Notes: generated from the sequence alone by a model not told the origin. Positions 201 to 53,299 are shown, counted from the first letter of the stretch. The stretch is 64,000 nt of DNA from Candidatus Nomurabacteria bacterium (GCA_026395965.1 JAPLXS010000012.1:36116-100115); one strand, 5' to 3'. A program made the numbers and translations.

Positions 201-1136
201 TTATTCAACGATTGCACTCATTTCATGATTGAATGCTTTTGAAGCTTGTACTATATATTGAGCTATATTCTTTTTGAAATATGGTTCATGTTGTTTTTGT
301 ATTTTAGATATTACATAGTATCCTATTGCCATCATGGTTACATAATCTGCGTTTTCTGGTAGTGGTATATAGAGTCTGTTTTGGGGATCACCATAGGTAT
401 CATTTTTATCACCAAAACTTATAAATAGTTCATTTGCAGGAACTACAGTTACTGCATGCTTCATATACTCTGTCGTCTCTACATCGTGAGCTATTATTCT
501 ACCAAATAATTCTATAAATTTAACTTGTAACATTCTAATTATTCCAGAAAATTTTGTAGGAACTATAAGAAAATATTTTTCATATTTTGAAAAAAATGTC
601 ATATCTATGGTATCAATATTTTTTTCTATAAAATTTTGAATATCAGATGTGTTTTCATGTGTTTTACCAAGAATCATCCCCATATAGGTAGATGTATTGT
701 ATGTATATGGTTCTCTATTTTTGGGAAATATAAATACATCTTTACTATCTACAAATTTTATCGCTTCTGCATCTTTGTTGTTTGTAATAAGTACTACACG
801 TTTTCCTAGCTCTTTTGCACGCTTTGCTATAATAGGTGCATGTTTTCCACCTGATGCAGAAATAACTATTACACTATCTATAGTTTTTATGTTTTCTAGT
901 TTTTGTTCATAGTTACTCTCAGAAGCAAATATTGCATCTTTTTCTTCAAATATAATCCTACCAGTAGCTTCTGCATTACCAGATCCTATAATCAGAGGAT
1001 GGTGGTATTCATCTAGATTTATTTTTGGTAATTCTTCTTTTTGGAAAAGTTCCAAAGCTCCTAAAACAACTATATCCAAATCAGGGATATTTTCTAGATC
1101 GAAACTTTTTAATATTTCTATATTTTTTGTATTCAT
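201..1136 (-). CDS. SIS-domain sugar-phosphate isomerase, possibly bifunctional phosphoglucose/phosphomannose isomerase-like
   Basis: SIS-like motif SASGGKHAPIIAKRAKELGKRVVLITNN. Its size and its position next to the Zwf-Gnd fusion fit a PGI-like role. The start was moved to the internal Met (MNTKNIEIL) at 1136 to avoid a 44-nt overlap; the track ORF extends to 1181. Confidence 0.5.
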   Translation of the reverse strand: MNTKNIEILKSFDLENIPDLDIVVLGALELFQKEELPKINLDEYHHPLIIGSGNAEATGRIIFEEKDAIFASESNYEQKLENIKTIDSVIVISASGGKHAPIIAKRAKELGKRVVLITNNKDAEAIKFVDSKDVFIFPKNREPYTYNTSTYMGMILGKTHENTSDIQNFIEKNIDTIDMTFFSKYEKYFLIVPTKFSGIIRMLQVKFIELFGRIIAHDVETTEYMKHAVTVVPANELFISFGDKNDTYGDPQNRLYIPLPENADYVTMMAIGYYVISKIQKQHEPYFKKNIAQYIVQASKAFNHEMSAIVE

Positions 1137-1137
1137 A

Positions 1138-3528
1138 TTATTTATTTTCTTTGTTATTAATATTTGAAATATGTCCTCCAAATTGGTGTCTCATAGCAGA
1201 AAGAACTCGTCCAGTAAATGATGGATTTTCTTTTGATTTTTTTCTAAACTCTAGTGACCCTTCAATGATGGGGACAGATACATTTAATTCTTTTGCTGCA
1301 TCTACTGTCCATTGTCCTTCTCCACTGTGCGCTACTACAGGTGAACAAGATTCTTCATCTTCTAGATTTTCACCAAATTTAGCAAATGCTTCAGACAACC
1401 ATCCAACTAGACTCGATGATACAACTGAACCATGGTTATATATATTGGTTATAGAAAGCATATTTAAAGAAAAAGGGGATTTCTTTAAAACTTCAAATCC
1501 TTCAGCTATAGATTGCATCATTCCGTATTCAATACCATTGTGTACCATTTTAACAAAATGACCTGCACCAGATTTACCCATATATCCATAGCCATCTTTT
1601 ACTGACATATCTCTAAACAGATTCTCGTATTTTTTATATAGCTCTGGTTCACCGCCTACCATAGTACAAGCTCCTTCTAGTGCTCCACCTGGCCCACCAG
1701 ATACACCAACGTCCAAAAAGTTGATTCCAACTTCTGATAGTTTAATTCCTCTTCGTATAGATTCCTTGTAGGGAGAATTTCCTCCGTCTATTATAGTATC
1801 TCCTTTTTCTAGTAGGGGAATAAGTGAGTCGATAACAGCATCTACTGCCTGATGAGGAACCATGAGCCATACACTACGAGGTACAGTGAGCTTGCTTACA
1901 AATTCATTGAGTGAGTATGCTCCTTGTATTCCCTCAGATTCGAGTTGTTTTGTGGCAGATTCTTCTTGATTGTATCCTATTACATTCCAATTTTTTGAAT
2001 GTAATAGTCTAGCAATATTGGCGCCCATTTTACCTAAACCAATGATTCCTATTTCTCCTGCAATTTCTTTTTTTAATTCATTTACTGTTTCTGTTTTTAT
2101 ATTCTTTGATTCTAGTAGTATATTTGGCTCGTATTCTTTTAAGGGAACAAGATTTTCTGCCCAACCTTTTAAGATAGGGTCAGTAAATTTCCATGAAGAT
2201 ATTACCTCATCAGAAGAAATAAATAGTGTTTGGTTTCCTTCCATTGCAGTATAAATAATTTTGGCATATTCTTCTATGTATTGAACTTTTGTTTCTTTTT
2301 CATAAAGGAAAAATGACAAAACACGTTCCTCTATAACTTGGTCGAAACCAGGTTTTTTTGTCCAGAAATTTATAGTGACTTCATCATTTGGTTCAAGTCT
2401 AAAAATTATTCTATTCGGAGTGTGTTTTCCATCTTCACACAAAAGACATACTTGTGGGTTTTTTAGAGTTAAAACTATTTCTTTTTGTGATTTTCCAGTA
2501 GATTTACCAGCTTCCATAAATATTGGAATACCTTTCCATCTAGGATGCAAAAGTTCTGTTTTAAGTAGGAAATATGTTTCAGTTGTAGAATTTGGATTTA
2601 CGCCCTTAACATTTTTGTAACCTTTATATTGTGATCTAAAAGTATTTTTACGTATAGATTCATCTGTCCAACTACTAAGTGCTTTCAAAATCAATGCTCT
2701 GTTTTCACGAACAGAAGAAACTCCCATTTCTATAGGATATTCAGAGGTTATAGCTGCAAGCATTGTCAAAATATGGTTTTGTCCAACATCACGAAGAGCT
2801 CCTACTGAGTCATAGAAGCTACCTCTGTCTTCTACTCCTATAGACTCTAACAGTCTTATATCTATTTTTTCTATCATGGTGTTGTCCCATGTGTTTTCAA
2901 AAAGATTATTTGAAAAACGAAAATTTTCTATTCCTTGAATTATTTCTTTAAAAAGATAGTGATCGATTCTATATATTTGTTCTTCTTTAAAATATAGAGA
3001 AAGAAGAGCTTGAAGTTTCTCAGCACTCGCAAGATCTGTGCCAAAGGGTTTTTCTATTAGTATACGGCTCCATCCTAAATCTCCTCCACATGGAATATTT
3101 AATTTTACAGAAGCAAGATTTTCAAAAATATTGGCATAAGCAGATGGCGGTACCGCTAGGTAGTAGAGTTTGTTTGCACAGATACTCCAATTGTTTTCTA
3201 TTTCTGTTATATGCTTAGAAAGGGAATTGTATGATTCTATGTCTTCAAATGTCCCAGCTTCATAAGAAAAAATTTTGAAAAATGACTCAAAATCTTTCTC
3301 ATCAATTTTCGTATCTATGTGTTTATCCAATGAACTAATGATCAAATGCCTTAATTCATCACTAGTAAGCTCTCTTCTTGAAAATCCTATAATTGCAAGG
3401 TGTGTAGGTAAACGATTATGAATAAAAAGATGCCAAAGAGATGGAATTATTTTTTTTGCTGCTAGGTCTCCAGTTATTCCAAAGATGGTAAATATTGAAG
3501 GTATATTGTTTATGGCTTTTTTATTCAT
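1138..3528 (-). CDS. zwf-gnd: Fusion protein: glucose-6-phosphate 1-dehydrogenase (N-terminal ~480 aa) fused to short-form 6-phosphogluconate dehydrogenase (C-terminal ~310 aa)
   Basis: The N-terminus FGITGDLAAKKIIPSLWHLF matches the G6PD NADP-binding signature. The C-terminal half has a GIIGLGKMGANIARLL Rossmann fold and GAGHFVKMVHNGIEYGMMQ, the 6PGDH signature. The 796-aa frame is continuous. Confidence 0.8.
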   Translation of the reverse strand: MNKKAINNIPSIFTIFGITGDLAAKKIIPSLWHLFIHNRLPTHLAIIGFSRRELTSDELRHLIISSLDKHIDTKIDEKDFESFFKIFSYEAGTFEDIESYNSLSKHITEIENNWSICANKLYYLAVPPSAYANIFENLASVKLNIPCGGDLGWSRILIEKPFGTDLASAEKLQALLSLYFKEEQIYRIDHYLFKEIIQGIENFRFSNNLFENTWDNTMIEKIDIRLLESIGVEDRGSFYDSVGALRDVGQNHILTMLAAITSEYPIEMGVSSVRENRALILKALSSWTDESIRKNTFRSQYKGYKNVKGVNPNSTTETYFLLKTELLHPRWKGIPIFMEAGKSTGKSQKEIVLTLKNPQVCLLCEDGKHTPNRIIFRLEPNDEVTINFWTKKPGFDQVIEERVLSFFLYEKETKVQYIEEYAKIIYTAMEGNQTLFISSDEVISSWKFTDPILKGWAENLVPLKEYEPNILLESKNIKTETVNELKKEIAGEIGIIGLGKMGANIARLLHSKNWNVIGYNQEESATKQLESEGIQGAYSLNEFVSKLTVPRSVWLMVPHQAVDAVIDSLIPLLEKGDTIIDGGNSPYKESIRRGIKLSEVGINFLDVGVSGGPGGALEGACTMVGGEPELYKKYENLFRDMSVKDGYGYMGKSGAGHFVKMVHNGIEYGMMQSIAEGFEVLKKSPFSLNMLSITNIYNHGSVVSSSLVGWLSEAFAKFGENLEDEESCSPVVAHSGEGQWTVDAAKELNVSVPIIEGSLEFRKKSKENPSFTGRVLSAMRHQFGGHISNINNKENK

Positions 3529-3775
3529 TTTTTATAATAAGTTATTTATAATGTTTAATAATTGTATCATTTGCACAAAATTCTACAAAAGAATTATATA
3601 CCATAAAGCATAACATCGATTTATGAACATTTGATGAATGTATTTTTACTTAAAATAGTAATTTTTAAAATTTTATGCTGATTTTTGGGTTTTATTAAAA
3701 GTAATTTGTAATATTTCGTTTATTTAATAAAGCTCCAATAGATGGAGCTTTTTATTTGTATAATTATTTTAATGT

Positions 3776-4291
3776 TTAATATGACATTCCAATTTCAAAG
3801 CCAGGAAGCATATATGTATCTGTAGTTTCTAGACTGGCTACTACTAACATATAATTTGTTGGATCATCTCGTTTTGGGTTATAAACATATTCATATCTAA
3901 AAAGTCGTATGTAAGAACTTCCATCTGGGGATGTTAATTCTGAAGTTTTATTACAAGAACTTCCACATGGGTCTACTGGTAGATTTTTCATATAGGGTTT
4001 AAGTGCTGTTTCCAACTCTGCCCAAGTGTTTGATCCTCCATCATCAGACCAAGCAAAACAAGCATTAGATAACCAATCACATCCATCAAAATCCGGTGCA
4101 TGACCATTAGCAGATACGTACAGAGCTACCGCATTATTGATTTCATTGATATCTCTCATTCTTCTTGCGTCACGAGCTTTAGCACGAGCAGAGTTGAGAG
4201 CTGCCAATATGACTGAGGATAGTATACCAATGATGGCTATGACCACTAGGAGTTCGATGAGGGTGAAGCCTTGGTTTTTCTTATTTATCAT
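3776..4291 (-). CDS. Type IV pilin / pseudopilin with prepilin N-terminal methylation motif
   Basis: MINKKNQG|FTLIELLVVIAIIGIL is a class III signal peptide with a conserved Glu5. Confidence 0.8.
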   Translation of the reverse strand: MINKKNQGFTLIELLVVIAIIGILSSVILAALNSARAKARDARRMRDINEINNAVALYVSANGHAPDFDGCDWLSNACFAWSDDGGSNTWAELETALKPYMKNLPVDPCGSSCNKTSELTSPDGSSYIRLFRYEYVYNPKRDDPTNYMLVVASLETTDTYMLPGFEIGMSY

Positions 4292-4373
4292 ACATTCAAT
4301 TTTAACATTTATTTTTTACACTAACAATTGATATTTGATTATTAATATAATAATAAAAATCGAAAATATGCAA

Positions 4374-5525
4374 TTAATTTTTTGTAGCGGTATTCTCTAC
4401 TAAGTATTTTTTAATATTTAGTTGGTGCTCCTCGTACGTAACGGAGCAATGTGTAATATGATTTTTGTCATGAATGTAATACAAACAATCCGTAGTTTCT
4501 GGGTGAAGTACAGCTTCTATGGCTGGTACACCAGGATTCGAGATAGGGTGAGGAGGAAGACCTTTATATTTATATGTATTAAATGGTGAGTCGGTTTGTT
4601 TGTCAGATATTGAGATAGGGTACCACCATCCTTTACCTGTATCTCCTCGTGTGTATTGCAGTGTTGCATCTACTCCGAGTGCCATGTTTTGGTTTAATCT
4701 ATTCCACAAAATACCAGCTATAAGTGCCATATCTTTATCGCCAGATGCTTCTCTTTGGACAATAGATGCCAGAGTGAGAGCTCTAGTCCATTTTATATTT
4801 TTTGTTGTGAATTGAGGTAAATATGGATAAAAATTTTCATTAAATTTTGCGATGAGACGTTTCGCTACAAGTGCAGGTTCCTCTATAACTGGTATTAGAT
4901 ATGTATCAGGATAATAAACTCCTTCTGTATATTCAGGACTGATCGTTGTATCAATTGTCACCCAATTACTTTTTTGCTTGGAAGTCCATCCTAAGGCATT
5001 TGCTAGTATCGTTGCAATTTCTTCTTTTCTCAATCCTTCTTTTATTACAACCCATTTCATATATGGCTTTGTATGAAGAACTTTATTTATTTGAGATGCG
5101 TTCATTGTTTTAGATAACTTGTATGCACCAGGTGTAACTGCAACTTTTTGTTTTTCAAGTGATGCTAAAAAACCCTTAGTATCAGTTATAAATTCGCCTT
5201 TATTTAGATTTTCTACTATTTTATCATTGGTATCATCGAGAGATACATTGAAGCGGTCAGTTCCTTCGGGTAAAACTTCCTCTGGAGGGGGAATACTAGC
5301 TTCTTTTTTGGGTACTAAAACTACTGGTTCTTTAACATTGGGAATATCTGTTTCTTTTGATATTTGAGTATTTGGCATGCTTTCTTGTTTTATATTTATA
5401 TCTGTTGTTTTGTGTAATTTAGGGTACAAGAAATACCAACCAGCTGAAAAAAGTATTGCAATAATGATTCCTATTAAAATATTTTTTGATAATGTTTGCA
5501 TATATCTAGTATAACAATTAAACAT
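4374..5525 (-). CDS. mltG: Endolytic murein transglycosylase MltG (YceG family)
   Basis: N-terminal TM helix, a YceG-like domain (..YYPDTYLIP.., LASIVQREA), and matching length. Confidence 0.7.
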   Translation of the reverse strand: MFNCYTRYMQTLSKNILIGIIIAILFSAGWYFLYPKLHKTTDINIKQESMPNTQISKETDIPNVKEPVVLVPKKEASIPPPEEVLPEGTDRFNVSLDDTNDKIVENLNKGEFITDTKGFLASLEKQKVAVTPGAYKLSKTMNASQINKVLHTKPYMKWVVIKEGLRKEEIATILANALGWTSKQKSNWVTIDTTISPEYTEGVYYPDTYLIPVIEEPALVAKRLIAKFNENFYPYLPQFTTKNIKWTRALTLASIVQREASGDKDMALIAGILWNRLNQNMALGVDATLQYTRGDTGKGWWYPISISDKQTDSPFNTYKYKGLPPHPISNPGVPAIEAVLHPETTDCLYYIHDKNHITHCSVTYEEHQLNIKKYLVENTATKN

Positions 5526-5583
5526 TTATTATGAAATAATAAAAAACCCCATACATAGTACGGGGTAGAGATTTGTAAAACCT

Positions 5584-6168
5584 CTAAAACTTTTTAGAAC
5601 ACTCTTTAAGTATTGAAAGTTGTTTAAGTATTCCTTTTGTGTGCGTAAGAACAAAATTTCCAGCTTGATAGTCGTTTATACAATGCCAAGTAGAAATATA
5701 ACCTTCTCCAAATTTAGCTTTTCGAGATAGTCCGCTGTTCTCTGCTTCAAATTTTTGTTGATTTTTAAGCCAATATGAAGCTGATTTTGTGTGAATTCCA
5801 TAAATATCTCCAAGAAATACTTTTTTAGGAGTAACTTTTTCTCCTGTCTGTGTACGGTTGAAACCAAAAGGATTTCTGCCGGATTCTTCGAAATGTTTCT
5901 GTAATACCTTAAGTGCATGTATCGTCTGATTAAGTTGGCCATAATTTTTCTTTTCCAATTTCAGTATTATTTTACTGAAACCACTTTTGTCATGAAAAGG
6001 AGAAATGACTTTGAATAATCTAACGATAGCCTCGACCCTGTTTTTCATTTTTGAAATTTCTTCCATTTCTTTTTCTAGAAAAGAAAGATCATTTTGAATA
6101 AGATTAAGGTCGTTTGCTACAGGTTTGAAAATTGAATTAAATATTTTAAATATTTTACTTGCTTTCAT
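5584..6168 (-). CDS. Hypothetical protein
   Basis: Long ORF with a coiled-coil N-terminal half and no recognisable motif. Confidence 0.45.
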   Translation of the reverse strand: MKASKIFKIFNSIFKPVANDLNLIQNDLSFLEKEMEEISKMKNRVEAIVRLFKVISPFHDKSGFSKIILKLEKKNYGQLNQTIHALKVLQKHFEESGRNPFGFNRTQTGEKVTPKKVFLGDIYGIHTKSASYWLKNQQKFEAENSGLSRKAKFGEGYISTWHCINDYQAGNFVLTHTKGILKQLSILKECSKKF

Positions 6169-6194
6169 TTTATTTGGTTTTAATTGTTAAATTG

Positions 6195-6244
6195 TTTATT
6201 GAGTTATCTTAATCTCTATAAAGAAACTAAGATAACTCAATAAA
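6195..6244. promoter_or_regulatory. Perfect 17-bp inverted repeat (TTTATTGAGTTATCTTA-N16-TAAGATAACTCAATAAA) in a divergent promoter region; candidate operator
   Basis: Seen directly in the sequence. AT-rich arms with no flanking T-run argue against a terminator. It lies 27 nt upstream of the minus gene start at 6168 and 119 nt upstream of msrB. Confidence 0.4.
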
Positions 6245-6362
6245 TATATAGCAATATTGCCAAAATGTATTAAAGAACTATCTGTTTAAATGATAGCATA
6301 AATATACCCATTTGTCAATTTTAAAAAAAGATTATATATACAAAATTTGATATAATATAATC

Positions 6363-6722
6363 ATGAATAAAGAACTAACACCAGAAGAAAAGAGAGTAAT
6401 AATAGACAAGGGTACCGAGGCACCTTTTATAGGCGAGTACATAAACAATAAAGCGACGGGCGTGTATGTATGCAAGCAGTGCGGTAACCCTCTATACAAT
6501 TCCAAAGATAAATTTGAGTCAACTTGCGGATGGCCAAGTTTTGATAGTGAAATAGAAGGTGCTGTTTCTAGGAGTATAGATATAGATGGCGCGCGTACAG
6601 AGATAACTTGTGCCAAATGTGGAGGGCACCTAGGGCATGTATTTAAAGGCGAACATTTAACAGATAAAAATATACGACATTGTGTGAATTCCATATCAAT
6701 GAAGTTTATTGAAGGAAAATAA
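6363..6722 (+). CDS. msrB: Peptide methionine sulfoxide reductase MsrB
   Basis: SelR fold with CxxC..CxxC zinc motifs and a catalytic region [10 protein letters not shown]. Confidence 0.9.
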
Positions 6723-6724
6723 TT

Positions 6725-7210
6725 ATGACAAAGAAAATAGTATTGGCAGGTGGATGTTTTTGGGGGCTACAAGAACTCATAAGAACTCAAGAGGGTGTAG
6801 TAGAAACACGAGTGGGATACACTGGTGGTGAAGTAGAGAATCCTACATATGAAAATCACAAAGGCCACGCAGAAGCAGTAGAGATATCTTATGATGACTC
6901 CAAAACCTCATATAAGAAATTATTAGACTTTTTCTTTCAAATACACAATCCGACTACACTAAACCAGCAAGGTAACGACAAAGGCACTTCATATCGATCA
7001 GCTATATTTTATGGTAGTGAGATAGAGTTAAAAGAAGCCAAAGATTTTATTGATATTGTAAATATGTCTAAGCGATGGGGTAATCCTGTAGTCACTACAT
7101 TAGAACCCTTAGGAGTATTTTATCCTGCCGAAGATTATCATCAAGATTATTTACAAAAGAATCCGGGTGGATACACTTGCCACGCTATATACTTTGATAG
7201 CTATTTATAG
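6725..7210 (+). CDS. msrA: Peptide methionine sulfoxide reductase MsrA
   Basis: GCFWG active-site motif near the N-terminus. It follows msrB with a 2-nt gap, forming an operon. Confidence 0.9.
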
Positions 7211-14398: not shown

Positions 14399-15163
14399 AT
14401 GAATTTATCTTTAAATAAAAATTTGGGTAATAAATATTCAAATCAATCGCAAAAAATAAGAGTTATTACTGAAAATTGGGTTCTAAATCAAATATATTGT
14501 CCAAGTTGTGGTGGTATTATAACTAACTATGTAAACAATAAACCTGTTGCAGATTTTTATTGTAAAAAGTGTGTTGAAGATTTTGAATTAAAATCAAAGA
14601 AAGGAAAAATAGGAAAAACTGTACCTGCTGGAGCGTATTCTAAAATGATTGAAAGGATAAATTCCTCGACAAAACCAAATTTCTTTTTTATGGGTTACTT
14701 GGGGACTTTGTGTGTAAATAATTTTTTTGTAATACCAAAACACTTTTTTATTTCAGAAATTATAGAAAAAAGAAAGCCACTTAGTAATAACGCAAGAAGG
14801 GCAGGTTGGGTTGGTTCAAATATTATTTTTTCAAAAATACCAAAAGCAGGGCAAATTTTTTATATTGAAAATGGTAAAGAGATTTCTAAAGAAGAGGTTT
14901 TAGAGAAATGGCAAAAAACAGTCTTTTTAAAGAAAATTAAAAGAGTAGATGCTAAAGGTTGGATTTTAGATATTATGAATTGCATTGATGCTTTAAATAA
15001 AAATGAGTTTACGTTAGTAGATATATATAAGTTTGAATCTGAATTAAAAAACATTCACCCAGAAAATAAGCATATCAAAGATAAAATCCGTCAGCAATTA
15101 CAATTTTTACGAGATAAAAATTATATTGATTTTGTTGGTTCTGGTAAGTATAAATTGAAGTAG
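14399..15163 (+). CDS. dpnI-like: DpnI-family (Dam-replacing family) methylation-dependent type IIM restriction endonuclease, PD-(D/E)XK catalytic domain plus C-terminal winged-helix
   Basis: 254 aa, the same length as S. pneumoniae DpnI, and collinear with it from memory: YSNQSQKIRVITENWV, YCPSCGG, PVADFYCKKCVEDFELKSKKG (D..E-x-K), NPNFFFMGY, RKPLSNNARRAGWVGSNI, IKDKIRQQLQFLRDKNYIDFVGSGKYKL. Confidence 0.85.
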   Translation: MNLSLNKNLGNKYSNQSQKIRVITENWVLNQIYCPSCGGIITNYVNNKPVADFYCKKCVEDFELKSKKGKIGKTVPAGAYSKMIERINSSTKPNFFFMGYLGTLCVNNFFVIPKHFFISEIIEKRKPLSNNARRAGWVGSNIIFSKIPKAGQIFYIENGKEISKEEVLEKWQKTVFLKKIKRVDAKGWILDIMNCIDALNKNEFTLVDIYKFESELKNIHPENKHIKDKIRQQLQFLRDKNYIDFVGSGKYKLK

Positions 15164-17094: not shown

Positions 17095-17310
17095 ACTTCT
17101 CATACTAGAACTAATTGGTGAAACTACAGAGACCGCGAGTACGCTTATCGACTACCACGTAGTCAGGTACTTTTCCATCTACGATAAGGAAAAGTCTTTC
17201 GATTCTCTGACGCACGTGACGCAGGTCACGTGCTTAGGGTAACGCAAGAAAAAGGCTTGTCCTAAGACAAGCTCATTTTTCAACGCGTGACCCTACGGGT
17301 AATTTATTGG
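17095..17310 (-). repeat. Copy 1 (no intact tRNA) of a tRNA-trailer structured repeat element family
   Basis: ~70% identical to 17925-18120. It contains the conserved core ..CGATAAGCGTACTCGCGGTCTCTG.. and GTCAGAGAATCGAAAGACTTTTCC. A palindromic hairpin CACGTGAC-CTGC-GTCACGTG is inserted, and an acceptor-like GTAGGGTCAC lies next to a terminator palindrome. Confidence 0.6.
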
Positions 17311-17393
17311 AACTCTATTGTAGAGAATATAAGGGGATATAAGGTATTGAAAGATTGAAAATGTGAAATAAAGTATTATAATAAGGAAATTAT

Positions 17394-17915
17394 ATGAAAA
17401 AATTAACTATAGCAGTAGGAACAACTTCTTTACAAAAAATTAGTTATCTTAAGGAAGTATTAAAAGAGTTAGAGATAAAATCATCTATTAAATCTATTGA
17501 TGTAAAAAGTGGGGTTTCCGAACAACCAATAACATCAAGTGAGACTAAAAAAGGTTCCATAAATAGAGCAAAAAAAGCCTTGAAAGAAATTAAAGACTCC
17601 TATTTTTCTTTAGGTATAGAAGTTGGATATCATAAATATTCAAAAGATAAATATGAAATTTTTTGCTGGGTAACTTTAATTGATGATAGTGGTTATCAAA
17701 TATCTGGTCAGTCTCATAAATTTTTATTACCAGAATATCATCAAAAATTCTTACATAGCGGAAAGTATCTTGGAGATAATTTAGATGGTTATTCTAAAAA
17801 AAATAAAAATTTTGTTGATGTTTATATAGAAGATATGATCAGACATCGCAAACCATTTATTGTTGGTGCATTAAAAGATATTTTAGTTAGATATTTTAAG
17901 AAAGAGGATTTTTAA
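17394..17915 (+). CDS. yjjX-like: Inosine/xanthosine triphosphatase (non-canonical purine NTP phosphatase, YjjX family)
   Basis: VKSGVSEQPITSSETKKGSINRAKKA matches the YjjX VESGVPEQPFGSEETRxGAxNR block; ~170 aa. Confidence 0.65.
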   Translation: MKKLTIAVGTTSLQKISYLKEVLKELEIKSSIKSIDVKSGVSEQPITSSETKKGSINRAKKALKEIKDSYFSLGIEVGYHKYSKDKYEIFCWVTLIDDSGYQISGQSHKFLLPEYHQKFLHSGKYLGDNLDGYSKKNKNFVDVYIEDMIRHRKPFIVGALKDILVRYFKKEDF

Positions 17916-17924
17916 ATTAAATGA

Positions 17925-18120
17925 CGTCCTTAACAAAGGGGACAGAGACCGTGAGTACACTTATCGAACCCTACTGGTTCAGTACACCTTTTCAAAGTAT
18001 TTTTGCATAGCAAAAATACTTAATGAAAAGCTTTTCGATTCTCTGGCGCAAGCAAAGAAGTTTGCTTGCTTAGGGTCACAAATTAAAAAGCACCGACTGA
18101 AAAGTCGGCTTTTTAATTTG
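17925..18120 (-). repeat. Copy 2 of the tRNA-trailer structured repeat element, immediately 3' of tRNA-Glu
   Basis: It contains an inverted imitation of the tRNA-Glu 3' end (GTGACCCTA-[23-nt hairpin]-GCCAGAGAATCGAA) and the conserved core CGATAAGTGTACTCACGGTCTCTG. A terminator hairpin (18085-18115) makes a ~28-bp extended palindrome with the tRNA acceptor end. Confidence 0.6.
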
Positions 18121-18192
18121 TGACCCTACAGAGAATCGAACTCTGATTTTATCCTTGAGAAGGATACGTCCTAACCGTTAGACGATAAGGCC
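18121..18192 (-). tRNA. tRNA-Glu (anticodon CUC)
   Basis: Manual fold gives acceptor GGCCTTA/TAGGGTC (two G-U pairs), D-arm TCGTCTAACGGTTAGGACG, anticodon stem-loop TATCC-TTCTCAA-GGATA, and T-arm CAGAG-TTCGATT-CTCTG. CCA is not encoded. Confidence 0.8.
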
Positions 18193-39772: not shown

Positions 39773-39797
39773 AAAGAAAAGGCATAAAAGCCTTATG

Positions 39798-39841
39798 CGT
39801 GTGCTTGGAATCGGACCAAGGACTTCTGTCTTTTAAATGGC
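39798..39841 (-). repeat. Direct partial duplicate of the 3' half of tRNA-Ile (anticodon-stem 3' strand through acceptor end), 40 nt downstream of the intact tRNA
   Basis: GACAGAAGTCCTTGGTCCGATTCCAAGCACACGCA versus GACAGAGGTCCTTGGTCCGATTCCAAGCACACGCA in the tRNA, one mismatch. Confidence 0.65.
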
Positions 39842-39877
39842 AGAGAGTTATAAAATGAAAGAGATTACCGCCCTGTG

Positions 39878-39949
39878 TGCGTGTGCTTGGAATCGGACCA
39901 AGGACCTCTGTCTTATCAGGACAGCGTTCTACCACTGAACTACACACGC
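39878..39949 (-). tRNA. tRNA-Ile (anticodon GAU)
   Basis: Manual fold gives acceptor GCGTGTG/CACACGC (perfect), D-arm GTTC-AGTGGTA-GAAC, anticodon stem-loop CTGTC-CTGATAA-GACAG, and T-arm CTTGG-TCCGATT-CCAAG; 72 nt. Confidence 0.85.
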
Positions 39950-40177
39950 ACGCAACGTACTAATCTATTTCATTTTTAACGAGCGAACCATTTATTTACC
40001 AAGGGTTACCTCAGGACAGCGTTCTACCAACAACTACACACACGCTATTTAAGTACTTCAAAAAAATAAATTCATACTTATCTTTAAAAGATACTGTTAG
40101 ACTATATCAAAAAATAGGTTCATTTGCAATCAAAAAGACCCCCATAAGGGGTCTTTTTGATAACGATAGTATATTTA

Positions 40178-52846: not shown

Positions 52847-52928
52847 GCCCGAGTGGCGGAACTGGTATACGCGCACGACTTAAAATCGTGTCTCGTAAGG
52901 GATGTGGGTTCGATTCCCACCTCGGGCA
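52847..52928 (+). tRNA. tRNA-Leu (anticodon UAA), type II with long variable arm
   Basis: Acceptor GCCCGAG/CTCGGGC, anticodon stem-loop CACGA-CTTAAAA-TCGTG, variable arm TCTCGTAAGGGAT, and T-arm GTGGG-TTCGATT-CCCAC. Confidence 0.85.
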
Positions 52929-52938
52929 CAATAAAAAA

Positions 52939-52964
52939 ATCACAGTGAAAGCTGTGATTTTTTT
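52939..52964. terminator. Terminator hairpin atcacagtgaaagctgtgat plus T-run, embedded in a 56-bp palindrome that includes the tRNA-Leu 3' end
   Basis: ctcgggcacaataaaaaaatcacag..ctgtgatttttttattgtgcccgag. Confidence 0.6.
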
Positions 52965-52965
52965 A

Positions 52966-53280
52966 TTGTGCCCGAGAGTAAGCCAACTGCTTGGCTTGCG
53001 TGTGGGAATCGAAAGACTTTTCGTTCTCTGGCATTGGCCAGAGCGAAAAGTACCTGGCTAAGTAGTAGCCGATAAGTGTACTCACGGTCCCACTTTGCTT
53101 CACTCGTGAGGTGGGAATCGAAAACCTTTTCCTTATGAGTGTACTCACGATTCCACCGATGCAAAAGGTATACTGTTCCTGTAAGGAAAGATATCCCACT
53201 TGTGCTATTCGATATATGTACTCACGGTCCCAATGCTTCACTCGTGTGCGTCGATTAGTATACTCACTCTCCCACTCACC
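52966..53280 (+). repeat. Copy 3 of the tRNA-trailer structured repeat element plus two further tandem degenerate core repeats, immediately 3' of tRNA-Leu
   Basis: Inverted imitation of the tRNA-Leu 3' end (TGTGCCCGAG-[23-nt hairpin]-GTGTGGGAATCGAA), then GACTTTTCG..GAAAAGTACCTGGCT..GCCGATAAGTGTACTCACGGTCCCAC. CGATA(A/T)(G/A)TGTACTCACGGTCCCA..GCTTCACTCGTG recurs at 53208-53250, with a partial copy at 53253-53280. Confidence 0.6.
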
Positions 53281-53299
53281 TATTCAAAAAAAATACTCC

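Follow-up and report, generated by a model that had tools for sequence, protein, structure and literature searches.

tRNA genes are the targets of temperate phages, integrative and conjugative elements and genomic islands with tyrosine integrases, among which a T-loop sublocation class is distinguished. The 3' ends of tRNAs are also used by casposons, 8-20 kb in size, whose integration generates target duplications of 14-15 bp; they are bounded by fixed terminal inverted repeats and carry genes for a Cas1 integrase and a polymerase. At the other end of the size range, MITEs (miniature transposable elements with inverted repeats) and the repetitive extragenic palindromic sequences (REP) and REPINs are small palindromic, non-autonomous repeats, the REPINs being mobilised by a single-copy RAYT transposase. 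Recombination sites that fold from a single strand are represented by the integron attC and by the attP of the CTX phage, which is used by the host XerCD, and tRNA-like RNA domains by the transfer-messenger RNA (tmRNA), viral tRNA-like structures and YrlA. Here, we describe a hairpin-rich element behind the tRNA-Leu(UAA) gene of a 64,000-nt stretch of a Candidatus Nomurabacteria bacterium (GCA_026395965.1 JAPLXS010000012.1:36116-100115; hereafter the window), which shares features with each of these systems.

In this study, we propose that the element belongs to a family of non-coding, non-autonomous DNA insertions of ~130-200 bp that probably home to the 3' ends of tRNA genes in Paceibacteria, a group of the candidate phyla radiation. 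Related loci assign the window to Paceibacteria/Nomurabacteria, whose phylum is now named Minisyncoccota by NCBI. As part of this best reading, the element is predicted to supply the bidirectional terminator of the tRNA. Our literature searches returned no description of this element family and, to our knowledge, it is undescribed within the literature and Rfam searched.

Architecture of the Copies at tRNA-Leu and tRNA-Glu

The initial annotation relied on tRNA-Leu and tRNA-Glu calls, on which ARAGORN and the Rfam covariance model agree, as they do on tRNA-Ile. The tRNA-Leu(UAA) gene (52847-52929, plus strand; ARAGORN; Rfam RF00005, 61.7 bits) has no encoded CCA, and its last 13 nt (CCCAC CTCGGGC A) form the segment that is copied within the element. 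The 56-bp palindrome reported after this gene was recovered by a repeat search at 52921-52976: two 25-nt arms (52921-52945 and 52952-52976), 100% complementary, enclose a 6-nt loop. It leads from the acceptor 3' strand through a GC stem-loop, with an A-rich trailer before and a T-rich trailer after it, to an inverted acceptor, and the descending arm closes with the tRNA-Leu acceptor 3' strand plus discriminator in reverse complement. The palindrome looks like a bidirectional intrinsic terminator common to tRNA and element. The inverted arm is split by a 22-nt hairpin (52978-52999) and resumes after it with GTGGGAATCGAA (53002-53013), which is complementary at 12/12 positions to the T-loop and T-stem 3' strand, in agreement with the annotated imitation of the Leu T-arm. 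Two further hairpins lie between GTGGGAATCGAA and the 20-nt common core CGATAAGTGTACTCACGGTC at 53070-53089, which is followed by CCCAC, the T-stem 3' strand once more.

The same layout describes the family in general. On the tRNA strand, the tRNA is followed by a GC stem-loop between an A-rich and a T-rich trailer, by the inverted acceptor and by hairpin P3; farther out come the inverted T-stem and T-loop, the helices P2 and P1, the 20-nt core and a direct repeat of the tRNA 3' end. A covariance model and profile was built from 51 aligned relatives, and the window was searched with it by cmsearch. The intact copy at the Leu locus, Leu-1 (52969-53095, minus strand; 118.7 bits, E 2e-25; delimited by alignment and RNAalifold), is read on the element strand, opposite the tRNA, as the T-stem copy GTGGG (53093-53089), the core GACCGTGAGTACACTTATCG (53089-53070), P1 (53070-53056), P2 (53051-53016), the T-loop-like TTCGATT (53013-53007), CCCAC (53006-53002), the P3 hairpin (52999-52978) and the acceptor 3' strand plus discriminator CTCGGGCA (52976-52969). 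Folded as single-stranded DNA, Leu-1 reaches -67.9 kcal/mol (z -13.7).

Farther from the tRNA lie the remains of older copies. Leu-2 (53101-53235, minus strand; cmsearch 47.2 bits, E 4.5e-9; direct repeats) has lost P3, the acceptor arm and the terminator, and Leu-3 (53252-53275, minus strand; direct repeat 83%, core match with three mismatches) is a remnant of a third core and T-stem copy (CGATTAGTATACTCACTCTC CCAC on the plus strand). Decay thus grows with distance from the tRNA, Leu-1 being the best preserved and Leu-3 the least. An old P3 hairpin has left one half at each junction: CACGAGTGAAGCA, as read on the minus (element) strand, lies between Leu-2 and Leu-1 (53096-53108; a 13/13 direct repeat), and a second exact copy at 53234-53246 between Leu-3 and Leu-2; the repeated GCTTCACTCGTG at these two positions is the surviving half of the hairpin. 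It matches the 5' half of a P3 type, ACGCGAGTGAAGCAGTTCACTCGCT, found in another family locus, L010. The two further degenerate tandem units of the initial annotation are not autonomous units but parts of older, partly deleted copies: 53133-53155 is the apex of helix P2 of Leu-2, 53210-53232 is the Leu-2 core and 53252-53274 the Leu-3 core remnant. A resemblance of the second unit to the variable arm of tRNA-Leu is explained by the covariance match as P2 apex plus T-loop copy.

The core is shared with the Glu copies, as had been noted: the copy GluA has the same architecture with Glu-specific arms. GluA (17941-18078, plus strand; cmsearch 134.5 bits) is intact, its arms show no mismatch to the tRNA-Glu(CUC) gene (18120-18192, minus strand; ARAGORN; Rfam 59.9 bits), and it comprises the core (17947-17966), TTCGATT (18034-18040), CTCTG (18041-18045), P3 (18048-18069) and TAGGGTCA (18071-18078). 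On its 3' side, a predicted bidirectional terminator (stem 18092-18109) separates it from the 3' end of tRNA-Glu. About 800 bp away, GluB is a complete copy (17125-17242, plus strand; cmsearch 106.9 bits) in a feature spanning 17125-17299; it has its own predicted bidirectional terminator (17254-17273), and the feature terminates in GTGACCCTACGGG (17287-17299), apparently what decay has left of the 3' end, in reverse complement, of a second tRNA-Glu gene that was lost. Between GluB and GluA lies a gene (17394-17915) for a nucleoside triphosphatase (NTPase), and a near-consensus promoter-like site for this gene (TTGAAA, 16 nt, TATAAT; 11/12) lies at 17355-17382. A simple terminator scan found terminator-like sites on both strands at 18092-18109 and 17254-17273; it missed the Leu copy because the A7 and T7 runs there belong to the 25-nt arms. 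With a GC stem-loop between an A-run and a T-run, the predicted element terminators are of the intrinsic bidirectional type. Across the window, the 14-nt core has seven matches at three or fewer mismatches, versus 1.1 expected by chance.

Family Size and tRNA-Specific Arms

Family loci were listed by core match. On the strand opposite the tRNA, the core GACCGYGAGTACRCTTATCG occurs in at least 118 stretches from at least 78 species-level Patescibacteria genomes, nearly all labelled Paceibacterota, Nomurabacteria or Parcubacteria, and its 20 nt are identical across at least 78 genomes. With the 51-copy profile, these loci and the window yield 179 copies in 79 genomes, at ~24 tRNA anticodon species. 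A tRNA lies within 150 nt of 93 of the 179 copies and is always convergent, a same-orientation tRNA being found in none; the gap between tRNA and copy, typically 30-50 nt, is the terminator. Among the 172 tRNAs of the listed loci, 94 carry a copy, a share that reflects the choice of loci by their core and is not an unbiased frequency. Rare carriers in these loci are Val-GAC (1/12), Ser-CGA (1/11) and Phe (0/4). tRNA genes without the element, named beforehand as a potential refutation, thus do exist, the tRNA-Ile of the window among them, and they do not refute the association.

The arms follow the neighbouring gene. When the internal arm (T-stem 3' strand, P3 hairpin, acceptor 3' strand plus discriminator) is scored in 68 parsed copies, it matches the adjacent tRNA perfectly (13/13) in 44, and the own tRNA is the strict best match in 59. 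The mean number of mismatches in 13 nt is 0.76 to the own tRNA versus 7.0 to other species, which bears out the proposed specificity for the adjacent tRNA. Since the arms are tRNA-specific and the core is common, the family cannot be described as transposition of one fixed sequence, as had been argued from the Leu and Glu copies alone. On the distal side, the reverse complement of the tRNA T-stem 3' strand always precedes the core. In 19 solo copies the distal match continues through the entire acceptor strand and the discriminator into 0-8 nt of the trailer, giving a direct repeat of 13-21 nt; the remaining copies keep only 4-8 nt. These repeats always abut the core at the same base. Most intact distal repeats carry the gene's own, untranscribed-looking trailer. 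Because this trailer is included and CCA usually is not, the direct repeat copies DNA and not mature tRNA; the earlier notion that the neighbouring tRNA is copied is refined accordingly to copying of the tRNA gene. A retro-element origin of the distal repeat from mature tRNA plus CCA was considered and rejected: CCA occurs in 5 of 34 intact repeats, versus ~5% of tRNA genes encoding it, which is not significant.

A sister family, "b", also lies 3' of tRNA genes (L203, ~2075-2235; L115, L036, L061, L087, L112 and others), outside the window. It carries GCCGAG.TGGGGTCGC..hairpin..GTGACC, followed by a diverged core (GAAAGYGTAATCRCGGT). Because the "b" element of L203 is flanked by a 17-nt direct repeat of a tRNA-Glu 3' end, the superfamily is broader than the exact core.

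Insertion Sites and Arrays

Orthologues of the tRNA-Glu(CUC) locus of the window were collected via rsmI homologues (84-91% identical). In those compared, the tRNA lies upstream of an rsmI that is 84-89% identical to the one in the window. The tRNA-Glu of L201 and of L202 agrees with that of the window in its 3' half, and the tRNA-Glu(CUC) of L204 has a different T-arm; none of the three tRNAs has a GC hairpin or an element behind it, AT-rich DNA alone following. The orthologous locus of L206 holds an array, and that of L203 the related element with its 17-nt direct repeat. Because no GC hairpin follows the tRNA at the empty orthologous sites, the terminator arrives with the element. The most direct comparison is that of the filled site L092 with the empty site L207, where tRNA-Glu(CUC) is followed by CATCAAGTGCTAGCACGAGAAGCATA. 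Their tRNA genes are identical at 70/73 positions; L092 has a 164-bp insert plus the 14-bp duplicate CCCAGTAGGGTCAC, and its distal flank is identical at 29/34 positions to the flank directly after the L207 tRNA. Element and terminator thus either entered together, duplicating 14 bp of the target, or were removed precisely between the repeats. The combination that characterises att-type integration, an insertion opposite an empty orthologous site and direct repeats of the tRNA 3' end, is provided by L092/L207 and the 19 solo copies. For tRNA-Leu, an empty site was sought via gatB synteny, and among 80 metagenome loci no closer relative had a tRNA beside gatB. Exact matches to proteins encoded by neighbouring genes of the window came solely from the same organism (100% identical).

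The flank of L207 (645-719), after a CCA-encoding tRNA-Glu, reads CCATCAAGTGCTAGCACGAGAAGCATA (cf. L092:1080-1131). In L028 (~5140-5179), the motif GTGCTAGCACGAGAAG is found again beyond the distal repeat of an element at tRNA-Arg, so that the supposedly native flank of L207 may be a repeated motif in its own right.

Tandem units occur in L001, L010, L028 and L031. The arrays of other genomes consist of full tandem units or of units joined after loss of the palindromic part, and they fit repeated insertion beside the tRNA. Taken together, these alignments show an apparent insertion with a duplication of 14-21 bp, reaching from T-loop position 60 to just past the discriminator, after which the tRNA remains intact and gains a strong predicted bidirectional terminator. 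They likewise show a succession in which new copies appear to land by the tRNA and to push older ones outward, the palindromic parts of the latter being deleted afterwards.

Structure of the Hairpins

RNAalifold on the 51 aligned copies gives a closing stem formed by the two T-stem copies, a 3-bp mini-hairpin in the core, with C:G in 37 copies and U:A in the other 14, and the helices P1, P2 and P3. These five helices covary strongly, with compensatory double changes in 29 of 34 pairs. When 134 copies are aligned, 93.1% of the cells pair versus 64.9% in shuffles, double changes are found in 1119 cells, and the covariation score is 0.589 versus 0.150 in shuffles, with none of 500 shuffles as high. 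The few non-Watson-Crick cells are almost evenly divided between G.T and A.C: 97 (23 of them in one column) and 83 among 4200 cells in the 134 copies, and 33 and 24 in the 51 copies. As a control, 157 tRNAs of these loci were counted in their acceptor and T stems and gave 103 G.U and 8 A.C. The element thus lacks the strand-specific tolerance of G.U over A.C that is the mark of a structured non-coding RNA. Its helices are conserved as Watson-Crick pairs on both strands without G.U bias, which argues for DNA hairpins rather than a one-strand RNA.

Upstream of 82 copies, scores for sigma-70-like promoters equal the background, with the reservation that Patescibacterial promoters may differ, and none lies inside the copies of the window. 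The absence of promoter enrichment, the terminator that separates element and tRNA and the symmetry of the mismatches together lead us to read the hairpins as features of single-stranded or cruciform DNA. Searches of Rfam with the window and both loci, at the gathering threshold and at E up to 10, matched only tRNAs; T-box riboswitch, tmRNA and group I intron gave no match at the gathering threshold, and the element itself matched neither tRNA nor tmRNA even at E up to 10. A permuted-tmRNA hit at E up to 10 was at chance level (13.3 bits versus a gathering score of 47) and was discarded. The initial annotation had asked whether a read-through transcript would sequester the tRNA 3' half. Such a fold is indeed predicted (z -11.1), but sequestration finds no support: it needs read-through, because the terminator separates the element from the tRNA, and the helices lack a G.U-over-A.C bias.

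Despite variable stems, the hairpin loops are conserved in two alignments: TTACA in P1, GCAG in P3 and AGTA in the core mini-hairpin. These loops are candidate recognition or cleavage sites of an acting protein.

Proposed Mechanism and Its Weighing

In the mechanism that we propose, the hairpins would act in single-stranded or cruciform DNA as a folded recombination site, the stem of which would be a double-stranded copy of the target, as in integron attC or the attP of the CTX phage. A recombinase or transposase encoded elsewhere would act on this folded site. Gene conversion within the palindrome might keep the inverted arm identical to the tRNA gene, and retention may be aided by the element providing the terminator of the tRNA. 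Templating by the neighbouring tRNA, as put forward in the initial annotation, is a reasonable candidate mechanism, for which neither an enzyme nor an intermediate was found. A further step would be a self-reprogramming miniature mobile element, whose arms are rewritten from the adjacent tRNA gene and whose DNA hairpin mimics the tRNA 3' end to home to the same tRNA gene in other genomes by means of a host or trans-encoded recombinase; we hold this to be conceivable and rather doubtful.

The evolutionary behaviour of the copies suggests exchange. Overall, their internal sequence clusters cleanly neither by genome nor by tRNA species (mean identity 0.62, 0.63 and 0.60), so that vertical inheritance and within-genome bursts are both too simple. 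Near-identical copies occur at different tRNAs in one genome. The copies of L115 (Glu) and L017 (Pro) are identical over ~85 nt and differ by fully compensated blocks at the P2 apex and P3, and a similar pattern is seen in L083 and L090. Copies apparently exchange modules.

Several observations weigh against a homing insertion. Of the distal repeat, most copies keep only the 5-nt T-stem part, the element itself being intact. GluA scores 134.5 bits with a distal repeat whose acceptor part is randomised, and in both GluA and Leu-1 a perfect inverted arm goes together with such a randomised acceptor part. Intact elements with decayed distal repeats point to in-place selection or repeated refreshment and are unlike a purely selfish, decaying element; selection, conversion within the palindrome and refreshment by recombination are the candidates for maintaining palindrome and element in place. 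The element is non-coding and comes with no cognate integrase. No recurrent recombinase or transposase was found within 2.5 kb of at least 130 copies, where the 611 clustered neighbouring open reading frames (ORFs) fall into housekeeping families, and none was seen among 30 window ORFs compared with Pfam (less than half of those of at least 100 aa). The core had no match in the viral contigs of IMG/VR, and phage and plasmid records, searched by blastn with the Leu copy, gave none either; an autonomous coding relative, i.e., an insertion sequence (IS) sharing the ends, was not seen in at least 118 loci, viral contigs, phage or plasmid records. That one core goes with arms for ~24 tRNA species is unexplained, the pair L092/L207 could equally represent precise loss by recombination between the repeats, and the G.T/A.C symmetry rests on ~180 non-Watson-Crick cells.

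Maintenance in place leads to the closest rival, which overlaps our reading and is compatible with an origin by insertion: the element may be a domesticated cis-acting part of the tRNA gene, serving as terminator or insulator or in tRNA 3'-end formation, with mobility being ancient or incidental. The position and orientation to the tRNA 3' end, which are always the same, would follow naturally, as would the empty orthologous sites without a GC-rich terminator, an inverted arm that is perfect (44/68) even where the distal repeat has decayed, the full-score structure of old copies such as GluA and a 20-nt core that is identical in at least 78 genomes. We nevertheless judge it unlikely, since about half of the tRNAs in the listed loci do without the element and close relatives lack it at the same tRNA, since a terminator has no need of P1, P2, P3 and the core, and since copies occur in arrays and solo beside decayed tRNAs; an RNA-type G.U bias is missing as well. 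The same lack, with 97 G.T versus 83 A.C against 103 versus 8 in tRNAs of the same loci, speaks against an independent structured small RNA gene of, for example, a tRNA-minihelix-like kind, transcribed convergently or by read-through of the tRNA strand. Two stems, one acceptor-like and one T-like, would make up such an RNA together with a T-loop motif and a shared terminator. In its favour stand the five covarying helices with conserved loops, TTCGATT placed immediately 5' of the T-stem 3' strand when the element strand is read, the terminator at the 3' end and the very low folding energy (z -13.7 as DNA, -11.1 as read-through RNA). However, most copies have no acceptor-like 5' strand, the heptamer resembling a T-loop often reads TTCGCTT and so lacks A58, truncated copies form arrays, no Rfam family matches up to E 10 and sigma-70-like promoters are not enriched upstream. 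A small RNA gene is therefore very improbable.

Direct repeats of the tRNA 3' end could also be passive attL/attR scars, left when large phages or genomic islands integrated at tRNAs were later deleted, an explanation in keeping with the classical direct partial duplicates at the tRNA-Ile of the window and with other mobile elements at the same spot (L020, L019, L007). The uniform size and architecture, the strong covariation and the identical core in at least 78 genomes are hard to reconcile with scars; att sites of large elements have no need of an inverted arm, no integrase lies nearby, and viral, phage and plasmid collections hold no match. We give this explanation very little credence. 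A single recent segmental duplication including the tRNA, which the initial annotation had named as the refuting scenario, might account for two copies near the window tRNA-Glu and is refuted: Glu and Leu copies differ in P1, P2 and P3 and have only the conserved modules in common, and 179 copies at ~24 tRNA species in 79 genomes exclude it.

Other Mobile DNA and Genomic Context

Other mobile DNA uses the same tRNA-adjacent spot (L020, L019, L014, L044). In L020 (~400-6870), the terminator and a tRNA-Gln 3' copy beside an element are broken up by 6.4 kb of inserted DNA with the inverted ends TGTCTCCTGAACAAAATCCG. L019 (2550-2590), L014 and L044 have ATCCTTTGCACGAAC in common, directly after a truncated inverted acceptor. 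In L007 (35-4726), a core copy abuts a 5'-truncated ORF for a large serine recombinase, followed by DNA methyltransferase and restriction enzyme-like genes; this small defence island at a tRNA-Gln-type site contains the only serine recombinase seen beside copies. The contig is binned as Rhizobiaceae and is probably mis-binned.

The window itself is bacterial chromosome of low GC content (~31%) with ordinary housekeeping genes, including gatB, gltX, GAPDH, RF, atpB, rsmI and L9. It further encodes a DpnI-like methyl-directed restriction enzyme (14399-15163) and an ORF of 796 aa (1138-3528) in which glucose-6-phosphate dehydrogenase and 6-phosphogluconate dehydrogenase are fused (G6PD-6PGD). The core element, present at tRNA-Glu and tRNA-Leu, is absent at tRNA-Ile(GAU) (39877-39949, minus strand; ARAGORN; Rfam 71.1 bits). 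This tRNA is flanked by direct partial self-copies (39796-40029): its 3' part recurs over 37 nt (97%) at 39796-39832, with a terminator after it, and its 5' part exactly over 19 nt at 40011-40029. They look like footprints of another, classical tRNA-site integration.

If mobile, the family would be an abundant class of mobile DNA without a recognisable transposase in reduced-genome bacteria of the candidate phyla radiation, and ends that copy the target would imply an unrecognised recombination activity with a simple, possibly re-targetable recognition of the integration site. If domesticated, it would be an unusual case of tRNA genes gaining terminators from an insertion element. For annotation, the family explains many tRNA fragments, pseudo-tRNA signals and strong terminators in Paceibacteria, and copies that appear, pile up and decay at tRNA loci provide a marker of recent genome change.

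Comparison With Known Systems

Among the systems compared, two do not apply. TIGR arrays, the guide RNA arrays of TIGR-Tas known in Parcubacteria, were considered as defined in PMC12045711; the units of the element are 130-200 nt long, without a 36-nt periodicity and without a nearby gene for a Nop-domain protein. The group I introns in Patescibacteria tRNA genes are likewise not applicable by comparison with the literature. With tRNA-like RNA domains, the element shares, on paper, an acceptor-like and a T-like coaxial helix and the TTCGATT motif. Unlike them, it has no Rfam or ARAGORN match and no G.U bias, its acceptor-like 5' strand is mostly absent, and its arms copy the neighbouring gene including the trailer.

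Like MITEs and REP/REPIN, the element is small, non-coding and hairpin-rich, has many copies per clade, lies at gene 3' ends, could act as a terminator, and combines compensatory hairpins with mosaic modules as in bacterial interspersed mosaic elements (BIMEs). It differs in its strict location at tRNA 3' ends in a single orientation. With respect to MITEs in particular, small size, many copies and a duplication are all present, the length of the latter being variable (13-21 nt); the terminal repeats are copies of the target and not fixed transposon ends, and P3 interrupts the inverted repeats. With respect to REP, a conserved GTAG-type head is lacking, and neither a parent IS nor a RAYT was identified in the searched loci and records.

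In its choice of target, the element resembles casposons and the tRNA-gene integrators. It shares with casposons a target duplication of ~14-15 bp at the tRNA gene 3' end, and lacks their Cas1 integrase, polymerase, fixed terminal inverted repeats and size of 8-20 kb. As in tRNA-gene integrators, the target reaches from the T-loop to the 3' end, direct repeats of 14-21 bp are formed, the tRNA is regenerated and insertions accrete by the tRNA. In contrast to them, the element is only ~130-200 bp, non-coding and without an integrase, it has an extra, inverted copy of the target split by a conserved hairpin, and its one core serves ~24 tRNA species where an integrator pairs one integrase with one tRNA.

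The comparison with attC and the CTX-phage attP bears on the proposed mechanism. Here, the target is a tRNA gene instead of attI or dif, any dependence on an integron integrase or on Xer would be conjectural, and the Watson-Crick symmetry of both strands gives no hint of the folding strand. In common with these folded sites, the element has a structure that is conserved while the stem sequence varies, an imperfect hairpin with an extruded element (here P3), a hairpin stem that reproduces the double-stranded target, and copies that form arrays.

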